From contig CAWBOC010000009.1 in assembly GCA_963790305.1 (NCBI GenBank), positions 512,001 through 576,000 on the forward strand: DNA of 64,000 bases, written 5' to 3'. The position numbers and the translations under genes were made by a program. Positions within the stretch are counted from its first letter, which is position 1; each line of letters begins with the position of its first letter. Source of the stretch: an uncultured Gemmatimonadaceae bacterium (lineage in GTDB: Bacteria > Gemmatimonadota > Gemmatimonadetes > Gemmatimonadales > Gemmatimonadaceae). Of the stretch, positions 37,430 to 61,427 are shown one piece after another. The notes under the pieces are model-generated. The model was given only the letters and a program-made list of their open reading frames with translations, made no database searches and was not told the DNA's origin.

Positions 37430-38050
37430 CTACCTCGGCGGCCCCGAGCCGCTCGCGCCACCACCACTGGGATTACTCCCCGACGTCCCCGTCGGCGATC
37501 CGAAATCCACCCGCGGCGCTTGCCCCGCTTCTGCTGATGCCTCGAAATACTGCCGAGGCTTGGCGCCCGTCACCTTGGCGGTGAGGTTCTGCGGGAACTG
37601 GCGGATGTAGCTGTTGTAGTCGCGTGCCGCTTCGTTGTAGTCCTGTCGAGCGACGGCAATCCGGTTCTCCGTCCCCGCCAACTCGTCCTGCAAGCGAAGG
37701 AAAAGCTGATCGGCCTTCAGCTGGGGATAGTTCTCCGCCACCGCGATCAGCCTGCCTAACGCCCCGGTGAGCTGCGTGTTCGCCGCCTCCATCTGCGCCG
37801 GGTCGCCGGACCGCACGGCCTCGCCCACACGGGAGCGAGCCTCCGCTACCCCGGTGAACACCGCCTGCTCGTGCTCCGCATACCGCTTGACCGTGTTGAC
37901 GAGATTCCCGATCAGGTCGGAGCGGCGCTGCAGCTGCACCTCGATCTGCTGCTTGGCCCCCGCGGCACGCTCGTCCATGCTCTGGATCGTGTTGTAACCG
38001 CAGCCGACCATCAGTGCGCCAGCGAGTGGCGCCAGCCAGCGAAGTCGCAT
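37430..38050 (-). CDS. lemA: LemA family protein
   Basis: GCGYN, QRRSDLIGNLV, ENYPQLKA and LAGTENRIAVARQDYN motifs; GGAGGAG RBS. Confidence 0.93.
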   Translation of the reverse strand: MRLRWLAPLAGALMVGCGYNTIQSMDERAAGAKQQIEVQLQRRSDLIGNLVNTVKRYAEHEQAVFTGVAEARSRVGEAVRSGDPAQMEAANTQLTGALGRLIAVAENYPQLKADQLFLRLQDELAGTENRIAVARQDYNEAARDYNSYIRQFPQNLTAKVTGAKPRQYFEASAEAGQAPRVDFGSPTGTSGSNPSGGGASGSGPPR

Positions 38051-38073
38051 GTCTCTCCTCCCAATGTGCGATA

Positions 38074-38592
38074 TCATCCCGTGCCACCACCGGTAAACCG
38101 AAGATCGACCTGATAGGTACCCGCGGGCACCTCGCCCGGGGAAACCTTCCAGGCATTCGCCGCGCGCTCGTTCAGGCATTCGTTCACGGCCTTCCCCGAG
38201 CTCGACGACCATGAATCGGCGCCGACGCGGGCCGCGGAGACGCCGTTGCGACCCACCGTCACGATCATCGCGACGCCGCCTCGCAGCCGCGGATCGCTCT
38301 TCAGTCCGAATTCGCGGTAGCAGAAATTCGAGAACGCCTGCTCCCGCTCAACGGCATCCATCAAGGCTGCCGGCGCGACTGCATAACGCGTCGTCACCGT
38401 CCTCGGCGTCTCGAGCTTCGGTGGCGTGAACGTATCGGGTGCAGCTGGGGGCAGCGACGTCGTCACCGAATCGAGGTTCAACGGCGTCGTGTCTCGCGGA
38501 ATCGTGTCCACGGGCACCTGCGCGGTATCGTCGTCCTTTGGACAGGCGAGCAGCGCGAGAACGAGTGGCGTGGCAAGCAGTAATCTCTTCAT
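38074..38592 (-). CDS. Lipoprotein with AgmX/PglI-type (TonB-C-like) C-terminal domain
   Basis: Lipobox LLAC, Pro/Thr linker, FCYREFGLKSDPRLRGGV...SW...C...W matching the C-terminus of 40954-41985. Confidence 0.7.
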   Translation of the reverse strand: MKRLLLATPLVLALLACPKDDDTAQVPVDTIPRDTTPLNLDSVTTSLPPAAPDTFTPPKLETPRTVTTRYAVAPAALMDAVEREQAFSNFCYREFGLKSDPRLRGGVAMIVTVGRNGVSAARVGADSWSSSSGKAVNECLNERAANAWKVSPGEVPAGTYQVDLRFTGGGTG

Positions 38593-39320
38593 GCGTGTCC
38601 CATTCGGTCGATGTGTTCGACGAGCCGGTGCACGGTCTCGAGGTATCCCGAGAGAACGGCGGTCGTCTCCTGCTCGGTCAGCACTTGTGCTCCTCGCACG
38701 TGCCGGACCACTCGGGCGAACGGGGCCGCATCAAACGCGGCCAGCCGCCCGACCTTCGTGCTCAGCTCCTCGTAATCGCGAGGCGGCGTTTCGCCGTGCA
38801 GGCGCACCACTGCCCGAAAGATCACCATGAAGGTACTGAGCGAATCCCGCAACAGCTCCACGATGCGACGATGGTCGCCTCCCGTCCGCAGAATTCCCTG
38901 GCGGAACTGGATCAGCTTCCCCATGGCCTCGTGCTCGGTCTGAAGTCTGAGGTGCTCGCGGCTCGGCTTCACGCCATCGAACGGCGGCGTGCCATGCAGC
39001 ACCCGATGCCCCTCGAGAATGTCGGCGTACTCCATGGGGAAGATGTCGGCCGAGGCGCGCCATTCGGCGTCGGTCATGGTGAGCGGCGGCGGGTTGCCCG
39101 CCTCCCCCCACGCTCGCGCGATCGCCGCCTCGCGGCGCAGACGGTCGACGTCGATGCGCTGCACGATCACCAGCACGTTGAGGTCGGATCGCTTCGCGAA
39201 GTGCTCCCCGGCCGCCGCCGATCCGTAGAGTACGACGCAGCGCAGCTCGTCGCCGTAGGCCGTGCGCAGTTGTGAAACGAGGTCGTCGAGTGTCATCGAA
39301 GCCATGGACTCACTCCTCAC
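38589..39320 (-). CDS. Pol-beta-superfamily nucleotidyltransferase-domain protein
   Basis: LYGSAAAGE...SDLNVLVIV and DIFPMEY; start uncertain (39320, 39305 or 39296). Confidence 0.8.
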   Translation of the reverse strand: MRSESMASMTLDDLVSQLRTAYGDELRCVVLYGSAAAGEHFAKRSDLNVLVIVQRIDVDRLRREAAIARAWGEAGNPPPLTMTDAEWRASADIFPMEYADILEGHRVLHGTPPFDGVKPSREHLRLQTEHEAMGKLIQFRQGILRTGGDHRRIVELLRDSLSTFMVIFRAVVRLHGETPPRDYEELSTKVGRLAAFDAAPFARVVRHVRGAQVLTEQETTAVLSGYLETVHRLVEHIDRMGHA

Positions 39321-40198
39321 CAGCTCGAGCCGCCACCACCACCACTGAACCCACCCCCACCACCGAACCCACCGAAGCCACCGCCACCGAATCCACCACC
39401 GCCGAATCCGCCACCGCCCCAGCCGCGTCCTCGATGTCCTCCAGCAGGGAACGGAAGGAAAATCGGAAGGCAGCCTCCGCCACCACAGCCACCGCGGCGG
39501 CCGCGGCGCCCACGCCGAGCTATCGAGCTGATGAAGATGATCGCGACGAGGGCCAGCAGGAACAGGGTCTGCGGCGGGATTCCACCGGGAGTACGCACGC
39601 GAATGGGCGGCTCCTGCGCGCGCCCCAGCTCACGGCCCAGCTGAGGGCCGAAGAGGCTGTCCAGCGGTACGTTGAACTCGCGCGCGAACTCGCTCGCGAC
39701 TCCGGCAGCAAGCTGGAGTGTCGCTTCACTGTAGTCCCGCCGCTGAAAAACCGGAATGACGGACCGGCAGAGCTCCCCCCCATCGCCATCGCTGATGAAC
39801 CCTTCAGCGCCACGGCCCACCTCAATTCGGCAGCGCCCGCGCCCATCGGAGGCGGTCTCTTTCGGGACGATCAGAATCACGACACCCGCGTTGCGTACTC
39901 GGTCGCCCGGCTCGGCTTTCGCGCCCACGCCCCATTGACGCCCGATCTCGAGCGCGACGTCCGCGGCATCGCGCTGCCCAATATCGGGCAACGTCACGAC
40001 CGCGAGCTCGCCGCCCGTGCGTTGCTTGAGCTGGAGTGCGATGCGGTTGATCGTTGCTTCCGCGTCCGGCGAGAGCACGTTCGCCTCGTCGACGACGACT
40101 TCAGCCGCCGTCGGAGAGAAGCCGCGCGGCGGCGACGGCACCTGGATCGCTTGCAGCGCCATCAGGGCGCCGATAGCTTGCAGCCCGCTATGCCACAT
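39317..40198 (-). CDS. TPM (TLP18.3/Psb32/MOLO-1) domain membrane protein with Gly-rich tail
   Basis: VVDEANVLS, WGVG...NAGVVILI, RIEVGRGAEG, TM helix, FGGFGGGGGFSGGGGGSSW; start approximate. Confidence 0.9.
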   Translation of the reverse strand: MWHSGLQAIGALMALQAIQVPSPPRGFSPTAAEVVVDEANVLSPDAEATINRIALQLKQRTGGELAVVTLPDIGQRDAADVALEIGRQWGVGAKAEPGDRVRNAGVVILIVPKETASDGRGRCRIEVGRGAEGFISDGDGGELCRSVIPVFQRRDYSEATLQLAAGVASEFAREFNVPLDSLFGPQLGRELGRAQEPPIRVRTPGGIPPQTLFLLALVAIIFISSIARRGRRGRRGGCGGGGCLPIFLPFPAGGHRGRGWGGGGFGGGGFGGGGFGGFGGGGGFSGGGGGSSW

Positions 40199-40237
40199 CA
40201 CGTCGGTGGGCGTTGGTCGGGGGCAGCGCGGTACGCC

Positions 40238-40888
40238 ATGGCGATCGCGCTGCTCGTCGTACATGGGTGCACGTCCGACGACGCACGTGTCATCGTGCGC
40301 GTGACGAGCGGGTCGGGACGCGCGGTGATCGCGTCGCCAGTCGATCCGCGTGCGCTACGCGCGTGGGACTCCCCACGCAGCGCGACGGGAGCCGTCGCAA
40401 GATCCATTGCGCGCTACTACGCGGCCAGCGACAGCGCGGATTCACTCGACGCGGCTTTTCAGCAAGCACGCGACTCGCTTAACCGGGAGGCGCGAAGCCT
40501 CACCGGCGGCGATCGCCGCAGCATGGAGTACGGGAAGCGATACGACGCGTACATGGCGCGCGTCGCTGTGGCAACCCGTACTCGTGAGGCGCGCGATCGC
40601 GCTCGGCGCCACGCCGCCACGCTCCGCGCGCAGCTGGGCGCCGACGCGCCCGACCCGGCGCAACGACGAGCCGACCCGGGCGCGCGCCTTCGCACCGCCC
40701 TCGACAGCGCAGCGCGCGCCGCCGGAAAGCAGATCGTTCGCGGCTCGCTTCGCGATGGCCAGGCGGCGCTCGAGCTGACGCCGGGCGTCTGGTGGTTGGC
40801 GGTCGAGACTAGCGAAGGACTGCTCACGGGCGTGAGACGACACGAGATGCGCCCTGGAGCGCGAGACACGGTGCAAATCGGCGCCTGA
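40238..40888 (+). CDS. Hypothetical helical protein, possibly a lipoprotein
   Basis: MAIALLVVHGC start, helical middle, LTPGVWWL beta-motif; start uncertain. Confidence 0.5.
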   Translation: MAIALLVVHGCTSDDARVIVRVTSGSGRAVIASPVDPRALRAWDSPRSATGAVARSIARYYAASDSADSLDAAFQQARDSLNREARSLTGGDRRSMEYGKRYDAYMARVAVATRTREARDRARRHAATLRAQLGADAPDPAQRRADPGARLRTALDSAARAAGKQIVRGSLRDGQAALELTPGVWWLAVETSEGLLTGVRRHEMRPGARDTVQIGA

Positions 40889-40904
40889 CAGCCCCGAACG
40901 AGAA

Positions 40905-40930
40905 CGCGGGGCGGATTGCTCCGCCCCGCG
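40905..40930 (-). terminator. Terminator of the Agl/Glt-like operon (possibly bidirectional)
   Basis: CGCGGGGCGGA-4nt-TCCGCCCCGCG; GCAA tetraloop and TTCTCGTT tail on the minus strand. Confidence 0.65.
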
Positions 40931-40953
40931 CTGCGTGATCCCCGCGGGATCGG

Positions 40954-41985
40954 TCATCGCGTGAAGTTGAACGTGAAACCGTACGTCCCGCCACCACGAT
41001 CGGACGCAGGGAACCGCCACCCGCGGATGCGCTGCCGAATGCAGTTCTCCGCCTCGGACGCACCCGCACCACCCCAGCTACGCCCTGTGACGTCCACGCC
41101 GGTGACGCTCCCGGCACCCGTCAAGGTAATCGCGACGTTCACCTTACCGGCGAGGCTCGGGTTGACTTTGAGCCCGTACTCCTGGTAGCAGAAGCGTAGC
41201 TGCGACTCGCGCGACCGCACGAAGTTGCCGAGGTCTCCGACGTCCCGTCCGGGACCGCCGAGCGCGTCCGGCGCCACCACGCGAGGCGGCTCGACACGAA
41301 CGGCGGCACGCGTCATCCCACCACCGGCACCGACGCCGCCGATTCCGCCGCCGCCGCCACCACCGGTGCCAAGTCCACCGCCAATTCCGCCGCGACCGGG
41401 GGTGCGAGAGCCCTCGCCTCCCTGGCCATAGCCAATGACGGCCTTCCCGCCAACGCCGCCACCACCGGTGCCGGCTCGTCCACCACCGGTACCGCCGGTG
41501 CCTGACGATACGTCGACCCCGCGCAGGATATTCGAGACGTCACCGACGAGACCGCCGCTGCCCTGTCCCGCCCCTGTCCCGAACGCAGCACCGATCGCCC
41601 CGGCGCGGTTGGTCTCGGTCTGGGAGCCGGGTCGGTTGGGCCGCGGGCTGCCCGCCTCGGGGCCACGCTGGCCCGGCGGGCGCGTGGTCGGCCCTGGCGC
41701 GGGCTGCTGTTCCGCTTCGCCTGGCTGCGGGGCCGGCGGTTGCGTCTCCTCGAACTCCACCGTCAACGGCGCGCTCAGCTCCTCCTCCGGGATCAGCTGG
41801 ATCGTCGGTTCGACTGCCGGAAGGAAGATCACCAGCGCAATCCACAACAAGCCAAGCGCGACCGCGACGACGTACGAGCCGACGATGGCACGGCCCTCCT
41901 CACCCATGATCTCATAGCGGAGATTCCGGGTGAAGGTCGTTTCGTCTCGTGACCGCTTGGGCGGTGCTGAACGTGTTTCTGCCAT
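40954..41985 (-). CDS. GltG/AgmX-PglI-like TonB/TolA-type energy transducer
   Basis: One N-terminal TM, Pro-rich then Gly-rich linker, C-terminal QLRFCYQEYGLKVNPSLAGKV...ENCIRQRIRGWRFP...FTFNF. Confidence 0.8.
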   Translation of the reverse strand: MAETRSAPPKRSRDETTFTRNLRYEIMGEEGRAIVGSYVVAVALGLLWIALVIFLPAVEPTIQLIPEEELSAPLTVEFEETQPPAPQPGEAEQQPAPGPTTRPPGQRGPEAGSPRPNRPGSQTETNRAGAIGAAFGTGAGQGSGGLVGDVSNILRGVDVSSGTGGTGGGRAGTGGGGVGGKAVIGYGQGGEGSRTPGRGGIGGGLGTGGGGGGGIGGVGAGGGMTRAAVRVEPPRVVAPDALGGPGRDVGDLGNFVRSRESQLRFCYQEYGLKVNPSLAGKVNVAITLTGAGSVTGVDVTGRSWGGAGASEAENCIRQRIRGWRFPASDRGGGTYGFTFNFTR

Positions 41986-41986
41986 T

Positions 41987-42532
41987 CTACCTCGAGGCCT
42001 GCGTGGCCCCCGGAGCTTCCGTCTTGTGAACCTGCAGCGATATGGAGCGGAACCCGGCCAGCCTCGCTGTTTGCATCACGCGCGCAAGGAGGTCGTAGCG
42101 CATCGACTTGTCGCCCTGTACCGCCAGCGGCACGTCGATTGACTGATCCTGTCCCAGGTTCTTGTCTCGCCTGAGCGAGTCTGCCTTCTGCCGAAGCGTA
42201 TTGTACAAACGGGGAATCAGCAGCGGCTGATTTGGATCGTTCGACACGGCCCGCGCCGCGTCGACCGTCTCCATGATAGCGTCCTCGCCCAGCGTGATTT
42301 GCCGTCCAATGCCGAGCGTGAGCTGCTTGTGCGCCACCGCGCCAACGCGCGACTCCGGCAGTGTCACACCCGATACGACCTCGGTGAGCTCGCTGACGGT
42401 CTGCGTCGTCAACGCGAAGAACACGATGGAGACAAATGTATCTACCAGCGGAATCAGATTGAGTTCCGTGATTCGGAACTTCGCGAACTGGGCCGCCCGA
42501 CGCGCGGCTCGATTCTCACGGGCGCGACTCAT
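41987..42532 (-). CDS. ExbD/TolR-family protein (AglS/AglQ-like)
   Basis: LNLIPLVDTFVSIVFF with conserved TM Asp; VQGDKSMRYDLLARVMQTARLAGF. Confidence 0.9.
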   Translation of the reverse strand: MSRARENRAARRAAQFAKFRITELNLIPLVDTFVSIVFFALTTQTVSELTEVVSGVTLPESRVGAVAHKQLTLGIGRQITLGEDAIMETVDAARAVSNDPNQPLLIPRLYNTLRQKADSLRRDKNLGQDQSIDVPLAVQGDKSMRYDLLARVMQTARLAGFRSISLQVHKTEAPGATQASR

Positions 42533-43068
42533 GGACGAGCTCCGGCGGCGTTATTGGCTACCTGCCGCGCGCGGTTGCTCAACGACATCCCCGTGAATCC
42601 CGCGAGCTTCAGTCGCTCGAGCACCTGAACGACGCGCTCGTAACTGACGTCGTCGTTGGGCACCACGGTCACGTCCCTGTTCTGCGGAAAGTCGGTCCGT
42701 ACCTGCTTCATGAGAGCCTCGAACCGGTCGAGCGCGGCCGCGTCCGTGCCGGCCACGGGCTGGTTGAGCCCCTCCGAATGTTCCACTTGCACCCTGTCGG
42801 TATAGATCCGCACGCCCACGAGGAGGTTGATGACTTCCTGCTCGGAGCGAATGCGCGCCGCCTCCTCTGGAGTCGTGATGACGACAGGAGGAAGCACGAG
42901 ATCGAACGCCGTCAGCGCCGCCATTGCGGCGCCGGTGTACGTCAGCAGGCTGAAGAACACGATCGACGTCAGAATGTCCACGAGCGGGATGAGATTCAGG
43001 CTCCCGTGCGCGGTCATCGGCGCCCGCTCGGCGCGACGCTGTTTCGATCGATGAAAGAGACTAGCCAT
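42529..43068 (-). CDS. ExbD/TolR-family protein (AglQ/AglS-like)
   Basis: LNLIPLVDILTSIVFF with conserved TM Asp; VPNDDVSYERVVQVLE. Confidence 0.9.
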   Translation of the reverse strand: MASLFHRSKQRRAERAPMTAHGSLNLIPLVDILTSIVFFSLLTYTGAAMAALTAFDLVLPPVVITTPEEAARIRSEQEVINLLVGVRIYTDRVQVEHSEGLNQPVAGTDAAALDRFEALMKQVRTDFPQNRDVTVVPNDDVSYERVVQVLERLKLAGFTGMSLSNRARQVANNAAGARP

Positions 43069-43077
43069 ATCTGATCG

Positions 43078-43142
43078 ATGAGGAGTGAGGCATGAGGAGT
43101 GAGGAAATCGATTCCCTCACTCCTCGGTCCTCGTTCCTCTCC
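43078..43142. repeat. Inverted heptamer tandem-repeat element
   Basis: TGAGGAG TGAGGCA TGAGGAG TGAGGAA versus CCTCAC TCCTCGG TCCTCGT TCCTCTC. Confidence 0.8.
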
Positions 43143-43786
43143 TAACGGTGCCCCAGTCGCACGTCCGGCCGATCGATGAGCGCGTTGATCAACCGAACGG
43201 AGAACTCGTCGACTTGCTCGATGATCGTCTCCGCCTGGCTCACGAGATACGCGTGCGCCACGGACAGCGGCACAGCGACCAGCAGTCCGAAACCTGTCGC
43301 ATTCAGCGCGATCGCGATACCCTGCGCCAGCGATGCGGAACGCTCAGCGGCGGAGGCGAGGCTCACGGAGCTGAACGCCTCGCGCAGGCCGAAGATCGTG
43401 CCGAGCAGTCCCAGCAGCGTGGCGACGTTCGCCAGCATCGGGAGATAGTGGAGCCGCCGCGTCAGCCGCGGGAGCACCGCGAGCGCCGCGGCATCGGCGA
43501 CGTTCTGGAGGTCCGCCTCATCACGGCTGCGACTGCGCAGAATCAGCAGTCCCATGTCAGGCAGCACCGCGTGCGACTGGGTGCAGAGCTTGATGGCATC
43601 CTCGACCTTGCCGGACCGCACGAGCTGAATGACGCGCTCAATGAAGGCGCGCCCGTTGATCTTCGACCGGATGACGATGGTGTAGAATCGCTCGAGGAAG
43701 ACGGCAAGTCCGATCACCGCAACGACGAGGATGAAGTGCATGATTGCACCGCCGCTCCGGTAGTACTCCAGCAGGTTGTTCAACAT
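43142..43786 (-). CDS. MotA/TolQ/ExbB proton channel protein (AglR-like)
   Basis: Three TM helices; NVATLLGLLGTIFGL and GIAIALNATGFGLLVAVP motifs. Confidence 0.93.
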   Translation of the reverse strand: MLNNLLEYYRSGGAIMHFILVVAVIGLAVFLERFYTIVIRSKINGRAFIERVIQLVRSGKVEDAIKLCTQSHAVLPDMGLLILRSRSRDEADLQNVADAAALAVLPRLTRRLHYLPMLANVATLLGLLGTIFGLREAFSSVSLASAAERSASLAQGIAIALNATGFGLLVAVPLSVAHAYLVSQAETIIEQVDEFSVRLINALIDRPDVRLGHR

Positions 43787-43879
43787 TTACGCGCGTCCTC
43801 CGAGGGAAGTTCTAGCTCTATCGTCGTTGTCTTACCGGCAAAAGCGCAGGAGCCGTGCCCGGCCCCTGTTCAGATGTCG

Positions 43880-44416
43880 CTACGGCCTGCGAGTGGTGTC
43901 ACGCGGCGCCGCCGGAGCGCCCATGCTCTGCACACGACCCGCGATCGAGTCGAGGCGGGCCCGGCGAAGGGCAATCTCCTTCCGAATCGCCTCGATCTCC
44001 GCTCGCCGTGCCGCATCGCCTGAGGTATCTGCTGGAGCAGCCGGCGTCACACCCGCCACGGGAGCAGGAAGCGGAGCTGGCGTCGTAATGACGCCCACGG
44101 CGGGCGGCGTCATCTGCCGCTCGGCCAGGCGAACGGTGTCGGCCTGGCTCCCCGTAATCGTGCTTCGTGGCACGAGCTGGTATCCGACGGTCGCCAACCC
44201 CAGGAAGTCGGGGTTGTAGAAGTCCGGTACCAGCACGTTCCGATCGAACTGCGGCGCTTCGCGGGGGCGGACCGTCACCACCTGCGGTGTCGGAACCTGG
44301 CCACGAATCTCGATCGTGCGTGAGGTGCCGCGCCGCGTCGGCTGCTGCGCCTCGCCGATCGAGGCGCAGAGGGTCAGCGCGACTGCTACCCCCAATGAAG
44401 CCTGTATCCTGCGCAT
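43880..44416 (-). CDS. Exported GltF/CglF-like protein with C-terminal Pro-rich and coiled-coil extension
   Basis: Signal peptide; IEIRGQVPTPQVVTVRPR resembles the I-x-G-x3-P motif I recall for CglF-like proteins; lies directly upstream of the ExbB/TolQ gene. Confidence 0.5.
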   Translation of the reverse strand: MRRIQASLGVAVALTLCASIGEAQQPTRRGTSRTIEIRGQVPTPQVVTVRPREAPQFDRNVLVPDFYNPDFLGLATVGYQLVPRSTITGSQADTVRLAERQMTPPAVGVITTPAPLPAPVAGVTPAAPADTSGDAARRAEIEAIRKEIALRRARLDSIAGRVQSMGAPAAPRDTTRRP

Positions 44417-44417
44417 A

Positions 44418-47400
44418 CTATAAGCCTCCAGCGAGCACGGCTGCCTCGCGTAAGATCATGGCCATCGGCGGGTCGGCCGGAACGTTTCCACGCAGGGCCT
44501 CGCGGGCCCGCTCCACCCAGTCTCGTGCTTCCGCGTCGGTCACACCAGGCGTCTGCTCCGCCTTCTCCACGAGCGACTGCCAGGTCTTCCGCGCCGCCTC
44601 GAAGAATTGCTCCGCCTGCTGCGCGGCCCCCTGCTCTCCCGCTTGCTGCTCTTCCGGCGTGAGCCCTGCAGGCAGCTGCACGTTGCGAAGGAACGTTCCG
44701 TAATCCCACTGAGCGAGTCCGAGGTGATACGTCGCGGCAGCGAGCCAGCGAGCATTCCCCGTCTTGATCGCGTTCGTAAAGTGGGTCGACATCTCGCGCA
44801 GCACCGCCTGCTTCTGTCGCTGCGCGCGTTGGACGCCCGCCGCCGTCAGCTGAGCCTTCGTCGAAATCACGAAGCGGAGTGTTCGATATCGAGGCCACAG
44901 CGCCGCGCCCCGACGGAAGTGTCCCTCTGCCACTCGCGCCGCGCACTGGCCTCGGATCTCCGGGGTCGGGCGCGCGCACAGGGCCGTGAGCTCGCGGCTC
45001 GCCGCTGCCGTGTCGCCAGCTGCCCGCAGGAACTCCAGTCGGGTCTGGCGAGCAGCTGCCGCACGCTGATCACTTGGGAACCGCGACGCGAACGATCCGT
45101 AGGCGCGTGCCGCCGCCGCCGTGTCGCCCGCTTGCGCGAACGTCACCGCCGCATTGATCTGCGCATCGGCAGCGCGTCGATCGCGTGGATACGTCCGTGA
45201 GAATTCCTCATAGGCCTGCGCCGCTTCCGCTTTCCTGTTCAGCGAGTCGAGCGCGACCGCGAGACGCACCATGGCGTCGGCGCGGCCCTCCCAACGAGGA
45301 TTGTCGCGGATGAGCCCGCGAAGCGCTTCGACCGCTTCTTCGCGCCGGCCAACCTCGGCGAGCAGACGGCCCTGCAGTGCCTGGTACTGGAGACGATACC
45401 GGTAGCTCGGATACTGCGTGACCAGCCGCTGCGAAAGCTCGATCGCACGGTCGCGCGCCTGGCGCGATGCCGCGTCATCACCCCGCGCACGCGCCGCGCT
45501 GTCAGCCAGCAGATAAACCTCGATCGCATCACGCAGCGCTTCGGGGGCGCGCTCAGACGTCGGATTCCGTTCCGCGATCGCGACGTAGATCTCTTCCGCC
45601 GCGCGCCGGTATTCTCCCTGCTTCACGAGCGTGTCGGCGAACGTCGCCGCGGCACCGGTGCGAATGCGGCTGATGGAGTCGGCAAGCGCACGACGCCCGG
45701 TACTCGTGGCGACTGTCTGCGCCGCTTCCCACTGAATCTGTGCTTCCGCGTACTGTCCACCGCGGTACATCGCGTCACCGACGAGCTTCTGTGCCGTCGG
45801 CGTGTACGCATCGTTCGGGTACAGCTGCGCGTACCGCTGAAACGTCTGGGCCATCACGTCCCACCGCTGCGATTCGGACGCGCGTTTCCCCTTCTGGATC
45901 AACGCGCGCTTCGCGAGGTCGGTCTGCGGGAACGCGGCGACATATCGATCCACCACGGCGAACATCGAATCCTGCGCCGCACGGTCGTTCTTGTTGCGCA
46001 CCAGCGCCGAATCAAACGCCACGATCGCATTCTGCCCCGCCCTCTGCGCGAGCGCGGTGTCACGCGGAGGATACGCGTAGGCGGCACGAGAGTACTGTAC
46101 GCCGGCCTCCGCATAGTTCTGCTGTCCGAACAGCGCTTCGCCGTAGAGCAGCGCCACGCGTTGTGCGCTGTCGGCCTGTCCGAATTCCTGCATGTACCGC
46201 CCGTACAGCTGCGCCGCCTCCGCAAAGCGAGCGCGGTCGTTGCGCTGCTGCGCCTGCGAGAGGCGGAACTGCGCGCTCTGGCGCAGCGCCTCCTCGCGGG
46301 CCGTATTCGCTGCAGCGACCGCGCCCGGATTGGCCTGCGCCCAGCGGGAGCTTGGTCCGAAGTTCTCGACGAGGGCGAGTCGAGCCTCCTGCGCCTTTTC
46401 GGGGTCGAGGACGCGGTTCTGATAGATGTCGACGATCTCGCGCTGAATGCCGAGCGCTGCCGAGTCGGTCGGAGCTTCGGTGATGACGGCGCGGTAGGCC
46501 TCTACGGCGCCCGCGAAATCACCTTGATCGCGCAGGCTCTGCGCAACGCGACGCATGACTGGCAGGCGATAGCGCCCGGTGCCTTCGCGACCGCTGAAGT
46601 ACTGGTCGGCCGCTTGGGCGCCACCGACCTGCGTGAACGCGATCGCCATGTATTCGATGGCTTCCGCCTGCAGACCGAGTCGAGCCTGCTGCTCCGACGA
46701 CAGCTGATCGTAGGACGCGACCAGTCGGCCGAACACCTCCACCGCGCGTCGGTACTCTTCCTGATTCGCCGCCGTCGCCTGGTTGTAGTAGGCCCAGCCG
46801 AGCTTGTAGAGCGCGAGGAAGTAGATGTCGCCGTTAGGCGGCGCCGACTGGGTCGCGGCCTCGTAGGCGGCAGCCGCGCGGGCAAAGGTCTCACGCCGCG
46901 CCGCACCACGCTGCTGGGCCGCGAGCTCGAACATCGCGTCGCCAAGACGGAAGAACGCCTCGGGGCGGAATCGCGAGGAATCGTCCTTCGTGACCGCCTC
47001 GAACATCCGCGCGGCATCGGCATACCGCTGCGCGGAAAAATACATCGTCCCCAGGGTGTACGAGGCCGCGTCGAACTTCGAGAAGTTCGGATAGCGCCGT
47101 ACCAGATCCTCGAGGCGTGCGATCGCCGGCTCGTAGTTCGGACGAATCGGGGTGTCCGCGCGAGCGGCACTGTCACCGCCGACGGCGCGCTGCGACTCGG
47201 CGAAATCCTCATCCGCCTTGCGAACGAGCAGCTCGCTCAGTTGAAAGAGGGCGTTGGGCCGCAGGTCGCTCGCGGGATACTTATTGAGAAATGCCTCCAG
47301 CTTCACGATCGCCTCGTCCCGCACGGTATCCGCGGATGAGGTCGCCATCGCGACGAGCCGAGTACTCCCCTGCTGCGCGGGCGCCTGGGAGGGTGCGGTT

Positions 47401-47435
47401 GCGAGGAGAGCGAGGAGTCCGAGTAAACGCTTCAT
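44418..47435 (-). CDS. Large periplasmic TPR protein (GltD/AgmU-like)
   Basis: Signal peptide; many TPR-like repeats (ALFQLSE, AFFRLGD, ALYKLGWAYY); C-terminal WLAAATYHLGLAQW. Confidence 0.82.
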   Translation of the reverse strand: MKRLLGLLALLATAPSQAPAQQGSTRLVAMATSSADTVRDEAIVKLEAFLNKYPASDLRPNALFQLSELLVRKADEDFAESQRAVGGDSAARADTPIRPNYEPAIARLEDLVRRYPNFSKFDAASYTLGTMYFSAQRYADAARMFEAVTKDDSSRFRPEAFFRLGDAMFELAAQQRGAARRETFARAAAAYEAATQSAPPNGDIYFLALYKLGWAYYNQATAANQEEYRRAVEVFGRLVASYDQLSSEQQARLGLQAEAIEYMAIAFTQVGGAQAADQYFSGREGTGRYRLPVMRRVAQSLRDQGDFAGAVEAYRAVITEAPTDSAALGIQREIVDIYQNRVLDPEKAQEARLALVENFGPSSRWAQANPGAVAAANTAREEALRQSAQFRLSQAQQRNDRARFAEAAQLYGRYMQEFGQADSAQRVALLYGEALFGQQNYAEAGVQYSRAAYAYPPRDTALAQRAGQNAIVAFDSALVRNKNDRAAQDSMFAVVDRYVAAFPQTDLAKRALIQKGKRASESQRWDVMAQTFQRYAQLYPNDAYTPTAQKLVGDAMYRGGQYAEAQIQWEAAQTVATSTGRRALADSISRIRTGAAATFADTLVKQGEYRRAAEEIYVAIAERNPTSERAPEALRDAIEVYLLADSAARARGDDAASRQARDRAIELSQRLVTQYPSYRYRLQYQALQGRLLAEVGRREEAVEALRGLIRDNPRWEGRADAMVRLAVALDSLNRKAEAAQAYEEFSRTYPRDRRAADAQINAAVTFAQAGDTAAAARAYGSFASRFPSDQRAAAARQTRLEFLRAAGDTAAASRELTALCARPTPEIRGQCAARVAEGHFRRGAALWPRYRTLRFVISTKAQLTAAGVQRAQRQKQAVLREMSTHFTNAIKTGNARWLAAATYHLGLAQWDYGTFLRNVQLPAGLTPEEQQAGEQGAAQQAEQFFEAARKTWQSLVEKAEQTPGVTDAEARDWVERAREALRGNVPADPPMAMILREAAVLAGGL

Positions 47436-47438
47436 ATG

Positions 47439-49709
47439 CTATCGGGGTGTCGATGGCGTGACAGGAGCGGGAGTCGTCTGTTCTGCTCCCGCGACGGTGC
47501 CCGATCCAGTACCCCCCGCCCGACCCTGAGTGCCCGCTGCACGCGTGCCGGTTGGCTCGACCACCTGGAAGAACGACGCGCTCGCCGATCCGAAATCAGC
47601 AGCCTCAGCGTCCTTCCGCAGTTGCGCGATCATGCGCTCCGCACGCGACCGAAGCTCGGCGTCCACCACGGCAATCACCTGGGCTTCACCCTGCGCCAGG
47701 GCTGCCTGCGCACTGGCGAGCGCTGCCCGCGCGGCTTGCACCCGCTCCGTGTCCCCGCCCTGCATTGCGGCGAGCTCGGCAGCCACGATCTGCTGCGTCG
47801 CGTCGAGCTGCGTGCGAACGGAGTCTACCAGCGCGAACGCATGCGCCGACTTCTGCTGCAGCGAATCGCGCAAGGCTACCACGGGGTGGCGGCGCACGGC
47901 GCTCTCGATGTTCTGCTCGATCGCCGTGGCGAGCCGCAAATAGATTTCGGCGGTCGAGCGCTCGGACTGCAGGATGTTTGCTTCCGTTGAGCCCGAGCTC
48001 GCGCCCAATGCGGCTCGCGTGCTATCGACCTTCGTCAGATTCGCTTGTGCGAGCTCGCGTGTCTCGGCCGCGCTCGCCACGAGCATGTCGCGCACCATAT
48101 TCGCGACCTCATCCACCACCGCGGAAACACGCTGCAGGGAATCGCGAGCGCCGGTCAGGCGAGCCGTCACTGTGTCGAGACTCGACCGCTCCTGGCCAAT
48201 CACTTCCTGCAAACGCTGGAGTGTCGCCAGACGCAGCTGCTGCGCGTCGAGCTGCTCCTGAAGGCGGAGCTGCGCCATCGCCACCACCACGTCGCCGGCG
48301 GCCAGCCGCTCCGCGGCCTGCGCATAGCGGCCGAGGTTCTCGGCGGAGGCGGGCACGTACAGCACGCGTCTCGGGAACTCCGCGCCAAGCGCGTTGGCCA
48401 CGGTATCGAGGCGAACCTCGACATCGGCCAGCGTCACGACGTCAGGCGCCGGCGGCTCCATCGAAACGCGCGCCAGGGTGCTGTCCGCGAACACCGCTGC
48501 CAGGACCGAGACGTCGGCGCCTGCGGCGTCAGGAAGCGCGAGCGTCTTTCCCGCCGCCGGATAGCTGAGGAACAGCAGCCCAGCGGCGCGAGTCGCCACG
48601 AGTGCCCGGGCGGCGTTGCCCATCTGGGCCGCGCGGCCCTGGACGACGTTCACCTCGGCCGCCAACGAATCGGAGATCGCCTCGAACAGGCGCTCAGCGT
48701 CCGCGGTCCGCCCCTGCTGCAGCTGAATCTGCGCCGCGAGGACGCGTGCTTCGTCGCGCTCGGGCAGCTTCGGGTAGCGAGTGGCGAATTCCGTAAACGA
48801 CGCCGCCGACGCATCGAGCTGGTTGGCGCGGAACTGCGCCCACGCACGAATCAGCAGTGCCTGCGCCCCGAGTCCACGCGCCGCGTCAATCTGGCCGGCG
48901 AGCGAGATGGCGTCATCGTACCGACGGGCAGAATACGCGAGCTGCGCGGCCGTGAGGCGAACGTGGTCAGCGGCATCACCCGTCGCGGTGCCGGCGACCT
49001 GCCGGAGTGCGTCGATGGCGGCGCCGACCTGCGAGGTATCGGCTCGCACCATCGCGACGGCATCCATGTAGCGCGCGTACGTGTTGAATGGTCCTTCACT
49101 TTGCGCGGCAGCGCCGAACGACGTCCGGGCCTGCGCGATGTTCCCCTGATTGTACGCGACGAGACCGGACACCAATGCCGTTAGGCCGCGATCGGTCGCG
49201 ACACCCGCGCCGGCGGCGAGGGCCGTTGCACGTCCATAATCGCCGCGGCGGTATGCGTCCACCATGAGCTGAAGGCGCAGGAGCCCCGCGTATCGGCCCG
49301 ATGGCGACGCATTCAGAATATCCTGCGCGGCGCCGCGGAACCGCTCGCCGACGCCGAGGCGATAGTACGTCTGCGCCAGGAGGAAGAGCAGATCCTGCCG
49401 GCGGTTAACGCTGGCGCGCGAGACGCTGTCGCCGGTCAGCGCGATGGGCGAAGCGCGCAGGAACTCCAGCCGATTGAGCGCGACGAGCGCCCGATCGGTG
49501 GCGATATCGTAGAGCGCCGCGCGAAGCTCCGCATCGACGCCGCGCGCCTGATCCGGCCGCGGCGTGACGACAGTATCACGTCTCGCAGTCGTGTCGACCG
49601 GCGTCGGCCGCTGCGCCGTATCGGCGGGAACCTGCGCCGATGCGGCGGCGCCGGCGATGAAGAGCGCCGTCGCGGCGCCATGGATGCACGACCGCAAGAG
49701 GGAGGACAC
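47439..49709 (-). CDS. Exported TPR and coiled-coil protein (GltC-like position)
   Basis: Signal peptide, TPR-like helices (QALLIRAWAQF), long C-terminal heptads; start uncertain (49709 or 49718). Confidence 0.72.
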   Translation of the reverse strand: MSSLLRSCIHGAATALFIAGAAASAQVPADTAQRPTPVDTTARRDTVVTPRPDQARGVDAELRAALYDIATDRALVALNRLEFLRASPIALTGDSVSRASVNRRQDLLFLLAQTYYRLGVGERFRGAAQDILNASPSGRYAGLLRLQLMVDAYRRGDYGRATALAAGAGVATDRGLTALVSGLVAYNQGNIAQARTSFGAAAQSEGPFNTYARYMDAVAMVRADTSQVGAAIDALRQVAGTATGDAADHVRLTAAQLAYSARRYDDAISLAGQIDAARGLGAQALLIRAWAQFRANQLDASAASFTEFATRYPKLPERDEARVLAAQIQLQQGRTADAERLFEAISDSLAAEVNVVQGRAAQMGNAARALVATRAAGLLFLSYPAAGKTLALPDAAGADVSVLAAVFADSTLARVSMEPPAPDVVTLADVEVRLDTVANALGAEFPRRVLYVPASAENLGRYAQAAERLAAGDVVVAMAQLRLQEQLDAQQLRLATLQRLQEVIGQERSSLDTVTARLTGARDSLQRVSAVVDEVANMVRDMLVASAAETRELAQANLTKVDSTRAALGASSGSTEANILQSERSTAEIYLRLATAIEQNIESAVRRHPVVALRDSLQQKSAHAFALVDSVRTQLDATQQIVAAELAAMQGGDTERVQAARAALASAQAALAQGEAQVIAVVDAELRSRAERMIAQLRKDAEAADFGSASASFFQVVEPTGTRAAGTQGRAGGTGSGTVAGAEQTTPAPVTPSTPR

Positions 49710-49723
49710 CGAGCCCACCCTTA

Positions 49724-50419
49724 TCAGAAAGGAGTAGTGCCGCGACTCGTCCACGTCGTCGGGACGAGCTGTCCGTTGCGCACCGCGAACTGCAGGTACG
49801 TGACCGTTTCACCCGCTGTGTTGACGTCGATCGTTTGCACGAGCAGCTGTCCGTTCACGGTCGCCTGGAAGCGGATCGAGTGCCGCGTCGGCAAGACGTC
49901 GGAGCGATACAGCTGGTCGACGGCCCCGAGCTTGAGCGCCTCGTTCGCGGTGGCCGAGTACTCGCGGCTTCCGGCGACCGCGCCATCCACCTCGAGCCGG
50001 GCGTCGGTAATGGTCTGTCCTTGCGCCGCCGAGTCCGCACGCACCATCACGACCAGGACTGAACCGGTGCGCCGACGAACAGCGTCCCCCAGAGAGCGGA
50101 ACCGCTCGCGCTGCGCGATCAGATTGTCCTGCGATGACGTCAGGATCGCATCGAGCTGCATCAGCGCGTCGCGCTCGTTGCTCATCATCAACTGCTGCGC
50201 GCGCCGCTCGAGCTCGGCGGCGAGCACGTTTTCAATGCGGGCCTGCAGCTGCACGCGCTGGCCGCGCAGCTCGCTGAGCCGCTGCTGCGTCGTCTCGAGC
50301 TCTTTCACCAGCTCGGCGCGGCGACGCTCGTAGGCCTCGTCGGCGGGCGAGCGCTGGGCGGCCGCCGCGACGGGAATGAGAAGGGCGAGGGCCGGGGCCC
50401 ACCATCCACGAAGGTTCAT
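49724..50419 (-). CDS. Exported coiled-coil plus beta-domain hypothetical protein
   Basis: Signal peptide, coiled coil of about 90 aa, C-terminal LEVDGAVAGSREYSATANEALKLGAVDQLY domain. Confidence 0.75.
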   Translation of the reverse strand: MNLRGWWAPALALLIPVAAAAQRSPADEAYERRRAELVKELETTQQRLSELRGQRVQLQARIENVLAAELERRAQQLMMSNERDALMQLDAILTSSQDNLIAQRERFRSLGDAVRRRTGSVLVVMVRADSAAQGQTITDARLEVDGAVAGSREYSATANEALKLGAVDQLYRSDVLPTRHSIRFQATVNGQLLVQTIDVNTAGETVTYLQFAVRNGQLVPTTWTSRGTTPF

Positions 50420-50446
50420 GAGATCTCGTCGAATGTGCGCACTGGA

Positions 50447-51661
50447 TCAGCGGCGACGCGGCGGTGGCGCACGTTCCTCGATGCGGCGGAGCCGCTCCTC
50501 GAGGCGCTGCAGTGCTTCACGCTCCGCCCGGAGCTCGGCTTCGGCGGCGGCGCGGCGCTGCTCGAGCTCGAGAAGGTTCTGCGCCTCGTACCGGTTGATC
50601 TCGAGCTCCAGCGCTGCGATGCGCTGCTGCCGGGTCTGAATCTCGGCCAATAGCGCCTCGCGCTGCCGTTCGAGCTGCGTCACGCGCGTCCGAAGGAAGT
50701 CTCCCTTCAACAGCGCGAAGATGTTGCTTTGCAGACCGATCGTGAACGCGAACTTGCTGTAGTTGTACAGCGCGCGCGCGGCAGTCTCGGTGGTGGTGTT
50801 GCTGGGCGACCGCGCTGCGCCGGCGCCAAGCTCGGTCCAGTAGAGGCCAGCCCGCATTCCGCGCCAATCGAGCGACGCGCCAACGTTGTAATCCCAGGCG
50901 TTGTTCTCTGCCATGAGCGACAACACGGTGTTCGGTGTCGGCGTGAAATCAACCTTGAGGCCCCCGAAGAGTCCGCCGGTCGAGTTCTTCGCGTACGCAT
51001 CGCCGAGCTCGCCGTCGTCCGAGAAAAGTCCGTTCCCGTATCCGACCGAGACCGACAGGTTCACGTCCGGCCACCCCGACCGAATATCGGCGAGCGAGAA
51101 GGATTTCGTCCCGACACCGTACACCGTGGGGGTGACGTCGAACGACTCGTGGATGCTGTCCGCGACGTGGCGATAGTTTGGCGAGCCCGGGTTCGGCGGC
51201 AGAAGCGAATACCCGATACCAAAACGATCGATTTGATCGTACGGACCAATGCCGCGCACGCCGAAGGCGATACTCGGAATGAACCACCCGCCCGGACGCC
51301 CCCGGAACTGCTCCTCGTTGAGGACCAGCGCCTGCCCGAAGAATCCGTACTCCGGATTGCTCGAGTAAAAGGCAACGCCGGCCTCGACGCGACCAAACAC
51401 CGACAGCGAGAACGTGAGCTGCGAGTTCAGCTGATCGTTGTAATTGATCTTCGTGACGGTCTGGTCGCCCTTTTCGAACGTCTTGACCGAGTAGTTGAGC
51501 GCGAAGTCACCGCTCAACGGCGCGACCCACGCAACGGGGATGTCGACGAGTCCCGCGCCCCAATAGAGCGTCTGCGGGTACGTCTGCTGTGCCGCGAGTG
51601 GACTCGCCAGGGCGCCGAGCCCAATGGTGGCTGCGGTCACGACGCGACGACGGATGCTCAT
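50447..51661 (-). CDS. YjbH-like outer membrane beta-barrel with C-terminal coiled coil (paralog 2)
   Basis: Signal peptide, GAGLVDIPVA, PSIAFGVRGI, YGVGTK, SVGYGNG, LFGG; coiled-coil tail. Confidence 0.65.
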   Translation of the reverse strand: MSIRRRVVTAATIGLGALASPLAAQQTYPQTLYWGAGLVDIPVAWVAPLSGDFALNYSVKTFEKGDQTVTKINYNDQLNSQLTFSLSVFGRVEAGVAFYSSNPEYGFFGQALVLNEEQFRGRPGGWFIPSIAFGVRGIGPYDQIDRFGIGYSLLPPNPGSPNYRHVADSIHESFDVTPTVYGVGTKSFSLADIRSGWPDVNLSVSVGYGNGLFSDDGELGDAYAKNSTGGLFGGLKVDFTPTPNTVLSLMAENNAWDYNVGASLDWRGMRAGLYWTELGAGAARSPSNTTTETAARALYNYSKFAFTIGLQSNIFALLKGDFLRTRVTQLERQREALLAEIQTRQQRIAALELEINRYEAQNLLELEQRRAAAEAELRAEREALQRLEERLRRIEERAPPPRRR

Positions 51662-51673
51662 CGTTCTTTCCTC

Positions 51674-52928
51674 TTAGCGGAACGCGGGCGGAGTAGCGCT
51701 CGACGACGGCGCGCTTGGCGGCGGCGAGCTGGACGGTGGCGGAGTCGTCGGCGGCGGCGGATTGCGCTCGAATGTTCTGGAGCCGCTCCTCGGCGCGCCG
51801 AATCGCATCGCGCTCTTCCTGGATCTGACGCTCGAGCTCCTCGCGGCGACGTGCAATGTCCGCGAGCTCGCCGGCCTGGGCGCGGCGCAACGCGACCTCC
51901 AGCGCCCGAATGCGGCGCTCACGGTTCGCGATCTCGGCGCGCAACCGGTACTGCTCGCGCGTCAGCTCCGTCACCCTCGTGCGGAGAATGACGCCGCGCG
52001 AGATATCGATCAGGTTTCCTGCATACCCGAGTGAAACGTTCCACTTGCGGTAGTTATACACGCGGCAGAGCCCGCACTTCAATGGGTCGCGCGACCCTTC
52101 CTCGAGCTCCGTCCCGTAGAGTCCCAGGGCGATACCACGCCAATCGAGAATGACGCCCGCGTTCCAGTCCCACGCGTCGTTTTCGGCGAGTACCGTCAGC
52201 GAGGTGTTCAGTGACGGGTGAAAGGACACGCGGCCCCCGAGAAACATTCCCTCGACGAGCGTGCCCTTCATGTTGTATTCGTCGCCGAGACCGCCGTCAT
52301 CGTTGAAGATGCCGTTGCCCCAGCCGATTGAAAAACTGCCGCTGGTGGCGAGGGGGCTGCCAAACTCCTTGGTCGCGACGGCATACAGCGTCGGCGTTGA
52401 CTTGAGATCGTCGAAGACCGACGCACGCGCCTCGCCATACTCGACGCCTTCGAGGACGATGTCGTGCGCGATCAGCAAGCGGTCGGAATGATCGTACGGG
52501 CCGATGTTGCGAACGCCGATCGCGACCGAGGGCACGACGCCTCCGAATTGCTCTTCCCGGAGCAGCATGACCTGGCCGAAGAATCCCCACTCGGGATTCT
52601 GGCTGTAGGCCGCCGCGCCGATGGAGAACCGCCCGAGCCAGTGCGTGTCGATAGCGATGTTCGTGTTCCACTTCGTCGCCCAGTTCATCGCATCGGCATC
52701 GATATAGTGCTCGATTGTCTTGCCCGACGTATTCAGCCACATGTCGGCGTTGCGTGGAGACACCCACGCCACCGGGATGTTGATGAGGCCCGTGCCGAAC
52801 TGAAGCGTCGCCGGATACGGCGTGCGCTGCACGGTCGGGGCGTCCTGCGCCGCCACAGCGGACGCCAGGAGCAGCGAAGCTGCGAGGGCGCGCGGCATCA
52901 AGCCGACAGCCGACCGCATCGTGCGCAT
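51674..52928 (-). CDS. YjbH-like outer membrane beta-barrel with C-terminal coiled coil (paralog 1; apparent +1 frameshift at ~51771)
   Basis: GTGLINIPVA, PSVAIGVRNI, YAVATK, IGWGNG. Removing one base gives NIERNPPPPTTPPP...PAFR* ending at 51674, just before the RBS of the next gene. Confidence 0.65.
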
Positions 52929-53142
52929 GAATCCTCCACTCACTCGGTGTTCATCGGTGATCATCGTAGCGCTGCGCCAACGACGCGTCTCGTTTTCGAC
53001 GACGCCGCGACGGCGGGAAACTTGTACGACGCGTGCGCCAGAATCAAACCCCTACGGGGTGCAAGAGGTATGCCCCATGCCAGCGAGTCACGCGCCCGTC
53101 CGTCAGGTAGCGATCCTCGCGCACGATACGTATCTCTCGTCC

Positions 53143-54303: not shown

Positions 54304-54987
54304 ATGACTCGGTCACTCGCGCATGGCGCGGTGTCGCTTTCGTTGCTGCTCGTCCTCGGCTGCGGCGAAAGGGCGGCCGAGGGCGAGACGGCGCAAGCCG
54401 CGGCCCCGCCCTCCGCCACTCCCGACTCCCTGACGGCGCGAGCCGACGCCGCGCGCATTCAGGGGAGCCCAAACGCGCCAATCTGGGTGATCGAGGTAAG
54501 CGACTTTCAGTGCCCCTTCTGCAAGACGTGGCACGACTCGACCTATCGCACGCTCCAGCGGGAGTTCGTGACGCCCGGCACAATCCGGCTGGCCTACATC
54601 AACTACCCGCTGCCGAATCACGAGAACGCCATGCCCGCGGCCGAAGTGGCGATGTGCGCGGGCACCCAGGGCAAGTTCTGGCAGACGCACGACCGCCTGT
54701 TCGATACCCAGGAGCGCTGGGCGCACCTGCCTAACGCGGCAGCCCTGTTCGATTCCGTTGCGCGGTCGGCCGGCGTGGACGTCACGGCTATGCGCCGGTG
54801 CATCGACCAGGGCACCATACGCGCGCTCATCCAGGCGGATGCGGACCGTGCGCAGGAGTCCGGCGTCCAGGCAACGCCCTCTTTCATTATTGGGGGCGAT
54901 GTGCTCATCCGAGGCGCTCAGCCCATCGAGGCGTTCCGCAGAGCGATCGCGCAGAAGCTCGCGGCGCGCCCGGCCACAACCCCGTAG
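54304..54987 (+). CDS. DsbA-family thioredoxin-domain lipoprotein
   Basis: Lipobox VLGC, SDFQCPFC, GVQATPSF and GAQP motifs. Confidence 0.92.
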   Translation: MTRSLAHGAVSLSLLLVLGCGERAAEGETAQAAAPPSATPDSLTARADAARIQGSPNAPIWVIEVSDFQCPFCKTWHDSTYRTLQREFVTPGTIRLAYINYPLPNHENAMPAAEVAMCAGTQGKFWQTHDRLFDTQERWAHLPNAAALFDSVARSAGVDVTAMRRCIDQGTIRALIQADADRAQESGVQATPSFIIGGDVLIRGAQPIEAFRRAIAQKLAARPATTP

Positions 54988-54997
54988 CCGCCGCTCG

Positions 54998-57924: not shown

Positions 57925-57939
57925 AGAGGAGAGTGCACG

Positions 57940-61400: not shown

Positions 61401-61427
61401 GGGTCTGAGTTCTCCAGGGATGGTCGT

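Follow-up and report, generated by a model that had tools for sequence, protein, structure and literature searches.

A Gemmatimonadaceae operon with the probable architecture of an Agl-Glt core complex and its own pair of YjbH-like outer-membrane barrels

The stretch of DNA described here comes from an uncultured Gemmatimonadaceae bacterium (assembly GCA_963790305.1, contig CAWBOC010000009.1, positions 512,001-576,000 of the forward strand; genome 94% complete), and we refer to the whole of its 64,000 nucleotides as the window. On its minus strand, running from position 52928 to 40954, lie ten co-oriented genes for two outer-membrane barrels, a coiled-coil protein, two tetratricopeptide repeat (TPR) proteins, a small exported protein, an ExbB/TolQ-family subunit, two ExbD/TolR-family subunits and a TonB-like transducer (Table 1). 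We argue below that this operon is very probably a Gemmatimonadaceae version of the Agl-Glt core complex. All ten open reading frames (ORFs) were found at the place and in the order given by the original prediction, which had been made from the sequence alone, and they are spaced by a few to about 90 bases, aside from the barrel 1 ORF as assembled. In scans with Pfam and NCBIfam, one ORF falls to the MotA/TolQ/ExbB family, two to ExbD/TolR and two to TPR proteins, and the barrels, the coiled-coil protein and the small protein receive no family. The scans also agree with the prediction that the operon holds no TonB-dependent receptor, tolB or pal gene; the ordinary systems are encoded elsewhere in the source genome, as a separate TonB-ExbB-ExbD-ExbD locus and a separate Tol-Pal locus (gene labels read by eye).

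Table 1. Features of the operon and its flanks, in window coordinates
Feature	Position	Strand	Description
Barrel 1	51674..52928	-	Exported YjbH-N/FapF-like beta-barrel with C-terminal coiled coil
Barrel 2	50447..51661	-	404 aa; 12-stranded outer-membrane barrel with C-terminal helical hairpin
Coiled-coil protein	49724..50419	-	231 aa; exported, coiled coil and beta-sandwich
TPR1	47439..49754	-	771 aa; TPR and long coiled coil; gltC position
TPR2	44418..47435	-	1005 aa; large exported TPR scaffold; gltD position
Small exported protein	43880..44416	-	178 aa; position of the core's 'additional gene'
ExbB/TolQ-family channel subunit	43142..43786	-	214 aa; PF01618, 79.6 bits; AglR position
ExbD/TolR-family subunit 1	42529..43068	-	179 aa; PF02472; AglQ position; Asp31
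ExbD/TolR-family subunit 2	41987..42532	-	181 aa; PF02472; AglS position; Asp31
GltG-type TonB-like transducer	40954..41985	-	343 aa; NF033768, 58.1 bits
GC-rich hairpin	40903..40932	-	13 pairs, weak U tract; downstream of last operon gene; folded
Lipoprotein, second AgmX/PglI domain	38074..38592	-	Candidate eleventh component, beyond the predicted operon
Sigma-54-type (-24/-12) promoter motif	53060..53075	-	Upstream of barrel 1; function inferred

The extent of the operon needs two amendments, a probable eleventh gene described below and a correction to barrel 1. As assembled, the barrel 1 ORF spans 51507-52928 (473 aa) and overlaps barrel 2 by 155 bases, whereas the frame that matches relatives stops at 51674. 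The extra base responsible is missing from all four close relatives, and contigs from four of four sequencing runs are one base shorter at 51771; these run contigs derive from relatives (best share of words 0.29) and tell nothing about expression level or co-transcription. The extra base near 51771 is probably an assembly error. The tolQ match in the source genome (C13:140580-141416) also holds an internal stop, and together the two suggest scattered single-base errors in the assembly.

The motor subunits appear intact and distinct. Across a 30-row alignment of the operon's ExbB, mean column identity is 87%, and Thr130 and Thr164, which we take to be the channel threonines of ExbB, are invariant. 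The two ExbDs are 25% identical to each other, and both keep the transmembrane aspartate that the prediction had pointed out, as do all 13 operon ExbD rows aligned; one ExbB/TolQ with two different ExbD/TolR homologs in a single cluster is a combination expected of the core complex. In a 26-row ExbB tree, from which the wrong-frame rows L180 and L181 were left out and which holds neither AglR nor other Myxococcus rows, the ten rows from the operon group together (92/87). They are joined first by the ExbB of a Vibrio plasmid operon (99/98) and next by two from one further genome, G220; the 13 ExbB/TolQ rows, E. coli among them, stand separately (100/99). The motor subunit thus appears to fall outside the ordinary ExbB/TolQ groups sampled, as the prediction required, with the proviso that this concerns ExbB in a tree without AglR. 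The Vibrio alginolyticus plasmid pMBL96 (L121:627-11502) carries a similarly built operon, with genes for an Ig-like protein, a barrel, four hypothetical proteins, ExbB, two ExbD-like proteins and a TonB-like protein; the ExbB of a second plasmid scores equally.

The TonB-like protein is of the GltG type. It has a short cytoplasmic start of only about 35 residues, one membrane helix, a Pro- and Gly-rich linker and a C-terminal AgmX/PglI domain, a domain common to GltG and GltJ whose model, NF033768, it matches well above the cut-off of 40 bits. It also matches the GltG model (E 4.7e-10, far below that model's cut-off), against E 0.0015 only for the TonB C-terminal model, and shows no match to the FHA domain. 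Sequence searches of the PDB returned only TolQ/ExbB and generic TPR proteins. Elsewhere in the source genome lie orphan paralogs, one ExbD1-like, one a membrane-anchored GltG-like protein and two small exported AgmX/PglI-domain proteins (C9:730811-731326, C10:249051-249932, C10:17036-17479 and C9:788267-788764), which are possibly swappable subunits.

Barrels 1 and 2 are paralogs, 34-43% identical across relatives. An AlphaFold2 model of barrel 2 (mean predicted local distance difference test score 83) places 12 long strands within residues 52-313 and helices at 321-397, and in a fold search FapF (Z 16.1, root-mean-square deviation 4.2 over 206) ties with KdgM (Z 15.9, 2.1 over 159). A profile of 67 barrel rows aligns to a nine-row profile of the YjbH N-terminal barrel (hhalign 96.6%, E 6e-10), an Atlas search leads from the barrels to YjbH clusters (0.92), and one barrel homolog, 60% identical, is named a YjbH-domain protein; comparison of a single barrel sequence with E. 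coli YjbH gives a weak match (E 0.0025). From these comparisons, the barrels are evidently homologous to the N-terminal, FapF-like barrel of YjbH/GfcD, here as proteins in their own right. YjbH and GfcD are double barrels encoded in exopolysaccharide operons, in which the N-terminal barrel is FapF-like and the C-terminal one a candidate polymer porin, as described in the accessible text of bioRxiv 10.1101/2021.02.17.431615 and PMC9603273. Here the chain ends in a helical hairpin with no second barrel, and no capsule genes lie at the locus; the link of the barrels to polysaccharide is real but indirect. A stand-alone 243-aa 'YjbH domain' protein in Parabacteroides (L124:2950-3681) indicates that single YjbH-N barrels exist outside this motor system. 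A complex prediction for barrel 1, barrel 2 and the coiled-coil protein scored 0.01 (mark 0.32) and was used neither for nor against binding.

The periplasmic components give weaker signals. Against two GltC-like gammaproteobacterial proteins, TPR1 yields a weak match (E 0.0017, probability 15%) with matching internal order over 153 columns, compared with E 0.0097 over 49 columns for TPR2 as a control, and the GltC hidden Markov model (HMM) reaches only E 0.29, in two of 38 members; the gltC role of TPR1 is weakly indicated, by position and size. Residues 770-995 of TPR2 resemble unnamed TPR clusters of Pseudomonadota and Myxococcota (0.93-0.96), which we regard as a lead. A single ORF of 1539-1767 aa spans the TPR1-TPR2 interval in eight of nine further regions fetched and, from its position and length, would be a fusion of the two proteins in some lineages. 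In the small protein, an alignment of 21 sequences reveals one conserved beta-strand motif (residues ~35-80) in an otherwise variable chain, and this lone motif, together with the gene's position, suggests a GltF-like role. For these three proteins, homology to GltC, GltD and GltF respectively is thus at most weakly suggested.

The coiled-coil protein provides a firmer link beyond the family. A profile search of 1.84 billion representatives reaches a gammaproteobacterial family (hhalign 98.3%, E 2e-14), and at the one locus of that family seen, the next gene encodes a 568-aa TPR-plus-coiled-coil protein that is GltC-like by size and position. The gammaproteobacterial homologs (Marinobacter; P0088-P0091 and relatives) carry the name 'AraC family regulator', and for exported coiled-coil/beta-sandwich proteins the designation 'AraC family transcriptional regulator' is probably wrong. 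A fold search with the model of the coiled-coil protein returned only common beta-sandwich matches (best Z 8.7).

The gene order of the system is conserved in relatives. A genome scan with ExbB found 136 relatives, from which 80 loci were kept, all in metagenome-assembled genomes; 79 of these are titled Gemmatimonadota or its subgroups, in line with the prediction of a probable Gemmatimonadota source. Conserved gene order in relatives had been set beforehand as a check, and 43 of the 80 loci (counted by eye) carry all ten genes in identical order and strand, six are without barrels, another 31 stop short of at least one gene, and none has a different order. Among 400 further Gemmatimonadota genomes (94 from the same family, 306 others), the coiled-coil profile matches 19 of the 94 and none of the 306, and the ExbB profile (E<=1e-32) matches 21 of the 94 and one locus outside the family. 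This last locus, in G220, was rejected as an instance of the operon, being an ordinary ExbB-ExbD-TonB locus. The system is present in about a fifth of the family genomes sampled. The barrels occur in two copies in 20 of the 21 operon-positive genomes and in none of 20 operon-negative ones. The positive set includes an unpublished genome, G155, which also contributes one count to the lipoprotein match below and possibly one row to the locus and lipobox sets; no conclusion depends on it. In searches for named AglR, GltD or GltF sequences, close relatives filled the lists of homologs, plasmid searches returned nothing, and a metagenome scan found one 1.3 kb locus only.

A lipoprotein gene downstream is probably the eleventh gene of the system, with a second TonB-like domain. 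Its product matches NF033768 below the cut-off (E 1.3e-4), and its lipobox cysteine, Cys17, is invariant in 26 rows. Matches at E<=1e-35 occur in exactly the family genomes (21 of 94) in which the operon ExbB is found, with two others only near 1e-17, and in three divergent loci (L111, L112 and L114) the gene directly follows that of the TonB-like protein. Upstream of the operon, a sigma-54-type motif is found in 26 of 53 regions, against a mean of 0.47 and a maximum of 4 in 200 shuffles and none on the opposite strand; the pattern was picked after being noticed in the window. The motif was not found in the other 27 regions, including five of five barrel-less and six of six divergent loci, where starts are approximate. 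RpoN is encoded in the source genome, and a consensus scan found no sigma-70 promoter. The terminator proposed to close the operon stands as a genuine hairpin, though its U tract is weak and a terminator consensus scan did not list it.

A core complex of this kind, the base on which Myxococcus built up its gliding motor, has been described outside the myxobacteria since 2011. In the accessible parts of Luciano et al. 2011 (PMC3169522), the core comprises aglR, aglQ, aglS, gltC, gltD, gltE and gltG, together with one additional gene in the non-myxobacterial Group B, whose hosts are Gammaproteobacteria, Geobacter and Fibrobacter. Their table runs gltC, gltD, gltE, an unlisted gene, aglR, aglQ, aglS, gltG, and the rows seen give GltG a length of 308-371 aa. 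The Gemmatimonadaceae operon resembles the Group B core in forming one operon of conserved order with one ExbB and two different ExbDs, and in its short GltG (343 aa) lacking an FHA domain, its two large TPR proteins and its small gene just ahead of the ExbB gene. It differs in having no gltE and in its two added barrels, sigma-54 site and TonB-domain lipoprotein, and, in some lineages, the apparent TPR fusion. Since the Fibrobacter cluster listed there has no gltE either, that gene is not universal in the core. The original prediction counted GltF among the core members; according to the same source GltF is not a core gene, though the additional gene sits at the place of our small gene. We had considered the coiled-coil protein as this additional gene and dropped it, as the gap in locus tags falls between gltE and aglR. 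Gemmatimonadota are not mentioned in the main text or in the supplements searched.

The operon also shares features with the Agl-Glt and Agl-Nfs machines of Myxococcus xanthus (PMC11761067 and PMC3858216, as far as accessible), namely the type of stator, a GltG/GltJ-type C-terminal domain in two proteins, a TPR shaft and more than one outer-membrane barrel. Unlike those machines, it has no FHA, zinc-ribbon or GYF cytoplasmic domains and no GltE, GltI, GltK or CglB. Within the operon, the cytoplasmic platform is missing: no gltI-, gltJ-, gltK- or cglB-like gene lies in the operon (GltI, GltK and CglB were not searched for genome-wide), and GYF_2 was not found in the source genome in a search in which no control matched. 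GltA, GltB and GltH are 8-stranded OmpA-like barrels, a fold that would set them apart from the 12-stranded YjbH-N-like barrels with C-terminal hairpins found here. These barrels share with YjbH/GfcD and FapF their homology to the FapF-like N-terminal barrel, but unlike YjbH/GfcD of group 4 capsule operons they are single stand-alone barrels with a coiled-coil tail, have neither a PgaA-like barrel nor gfcABC/etk neighbours, and are linked to a proton motor. With TonB-ExbBD and Tol-Pal the system has in common the stator family and a tethered TonB-like transducer; it appears to differ in a heterodimeric ExbD pair in another clade, and differs in its TPR shaft and in lacking a 22-stranded receptor, TolB or Pal.

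We conclude, with a probability of about 0.85, that the operon belongs by family and architecture to the Agl-Glt core complexes, an assignment that rests on gene order, protein sizes, the GltG domain, the homology of the coiled-coil protein and the separation of the motor. The prediction of an Agl-Glt-type core that has its own outer-membrane module and a conserved gene order has held up; for both TPR proteins and the small protein, direct homology to their Glt counterparts has proved weak or undetected. As the core itself is older knowledge, the arrangement is one more form of it and not a machine of a new kind. New here are the pair of YjbH-N-like barrels, the co-distributed TonB-domain lipoprotein, the conserved sigma-54 site and the apparent TPR fusions; the literature searched (including the accessible parts of PMC12505986 and PMC12204202, with subscription papers mostly outside the search) contained no description of the system in Gemmatimonadota, nor of YjbH-like barrels tied to such a motor. 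The parts, their order, the intact motor residues and the barrel fold, as read from the DNA, most likely describe a proton motor that acts on an outer-membrane module of its own and is the cell's third, distinct from those of TonB and Tol-Pal.

We propose that force follows the same route as in the Myxococcus machine, for which an AlphaFold model (PMC11761067, accessible text) has an AglR5QS stator holding GltG, the GltG C-terminal domain binding GltD and a strand of GltF, GltC tying the shaft to the barrels, and a GltJ domain also binding GltD. By analogy, the two ExbDs would form a heterodimer encircled by five ExbB-like subunits, and this stator would draw on the proton gradient to exert a pull on the GltG-like protein, whose C-terminal domain would catch the conserved strand of the small protein and dock on TPR2. 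TPR2 and TPR1 would form one periplasmic shaft, tied by the coiled-coil protein and the periplasmic barrel hairpins to the barrel 1-barrel 2 pair, with the second TonB-like domain of the lipoprotein taking the part of the periplasmic portion of GltJ. The output, controlled by sigma-54, would be the outward movement of a surface polymer, probably one of sugars, along the barrels or through them. We consider this the most likely output, at somewhat less than even odds. In its favour, the barrels come from a capsule-operon family, and the two Myxococcus machines, Agl-Glt and Agl-Nfs, have extracellular polysaccharides as their targets (PMC3858216, accessible text). A more novel reading is tentative: the motor would drive cargo through a small FapF/YjbH-type barrel heterodimer by way of the TPR shaft. 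The system would then be an outer-membrane translocator that is energised yet needs no TonB-dependent receptor, and it might also serve soil Gemmatimonadota as a surface motor that works without flagella.

A number of observations weigh against these proposals, some at the level of family and others at that of output. The ExbB tree contains no AglR row, and its Vibrio row sits on a long branch. The GltC HMM (NF033756) has no match at the operon, though the two gammaproteobacterial GltC-like proteins are likewise unmatched; the CglF/GltF HMM (NF033764) does not match the small protein; and no ORF lies between TPR2 and the small gene in the place of gltE, whose model (NF033758) returns genome-wide only generic TPR matches far below cut-off. 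Pfam YjbH (PF06082), among the families shown, matched neither the source genome nor any of the 67 barrel rows. Passage of polymer has been proposed for the C-terminal, PgaA-like barrel of YjbH, not for the N-terminal one to which the barrels here correspond (bioRxiv 10.1101/2021.02.17.431615 and PMC9603273, accessible text). No glycosyltransferase, OPX or Wzc gene lies within the operon, and the source genome's two OPX-type genes sit away from it. One clade (L078, L079 and L082-L085) keeps the eight other operon genes with no barrel match genome-wide in any of its six genomes, whose completeness was not given; an alignment of four of its rows shows the coiled-coil protein remodelled as well, in its N-terminal half. 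This clade offers a natural comparison for the contribution of the barrels.

Other outputs can be envisaged. Energised import, in which the motor would unplug the barrel pair so that oligosaccharides or other large solutes could enter, much as TonB acts on its receptors, is possible but unlikely. The source genome already has an ordinary TonB system, and the neighbours tested include no conserved hydrolase, binding protein or inner-membrane transporter. The fold ties of the barrels with the acidic-sugar porins KdgM (Z 15.9), GalP and NanC (Z 14.1) and with COG4313 channels would suit import, yet sugar porins with 12 strands work passively. A plug might be formed by residues 30-45 of barrel 2, which are conserved and confidently modelled ahead of the first strand. 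A Fibrobacter cluster that combines two TPR genes and two ExbD-type genes with ExbB and TonB shows raised expression on cellulose and has been proposed, in the accessible text of PMC6851124, to take up cellodextrins; from gene order, we infer that this is the cluster listed by Luciano et al. Less probable is energised export or surface display of a protein, such as an amyloid subunit, adhesin or lipoprotein, through FapF-like barrels. No cargo gene is linked to the operon, and the best fold match, the amyloid exporter FapF, is only 10% identical and ties with KdgM in Z score; on the other side, passage of amyloid peptides has been suggested for the FapF-like N-terminal barrel of YjbH (bioRxiv 10.1101/2021.02.17.431615 and PMC9603273, accessible text), and the Vibrio plasmid operon starts with an Ig-like protein and a barrel.

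Of the drive options first offered, gliding, polymer movement and a transporter, gliding has lost ground, with no cytoplasmic FHA domain and no GltJ-type cytoplasmic linker found. A gliding machine evolved from the core independently of Myxococcus, its barrels gripping slime or an adhesin, is doubtful, and Myxococcus-type gliding is less likely than surface-polymer movement. Flagellin is found in two of 21 operon-positive against ten of 20 operon-negative genomes (naive Fisher p 0.006) and not in the source genome, but this pattern is confounded by kinship and habitat, soil members being mostly without flagella (PMC10581226, accessible text). The second TonB-like domain parallels GltJ, and Roadblock/MglB-like genes are present; the latter occur in 40 of 42 genomes regardless of the operon, and we rejected them as operon-tracking partners. 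According to the accessible text of Luciano et al. (PMC3169522), moreover, the core alone is unlikely to drive motility. The least probable option is a sigma-54-induced device for envelope maintenance or vesicle shaping, akin to Tol-Pal, in which the barrels would be anchors only. The loss of the barrels in one clade fits this, as do frequent lemA, TPM-domain, dsbA and kdtA neighbours and the TPR2 repeats, which score best to CpoB/YbgF models, but such scores are typical of generic TPRs, Tol-Pal is encoded separately, and some four fifths of the family genomes sampled gave no match to the operon.

The non-myxobacterial Glt core has been without an assigned function since 2011, and this locus joins it with the N-terminal barrel of YjbH/GfcD. 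If the translocator proposal is true, it gives a first function to both. The locus also adds to a picture of the core as a general force-delivery device to which lineages fit different outer-membrane tools. Its eleven genes, a compact set present in single copy, would lend themselves to joint expression or modelling.

Around the lipoprotein gene (37430-40264) lie TPM-domain, nucleotidyltransferase-like and lemA genes, a set that follows the operon in most long loci and was not matched in those that diverge most. Upstream of the operon, at 54304-58335, are dsbA-like, kdtA-like, EAL-domain and receiver genes, also seen in several relatives (kdtA and EAL labels by eye), and a link to c-di-GMP is possible. 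About 7 kb upstream on the same strand (59994-64000), genes labelled by eye encode a SusD-like lipoprotein and a SusC-like receptor that is apparently split into two ORFs. At 23604-24551, the window further encodes an exported protein with what, by eye, we take to be a PorV-like N-terminal pattern.

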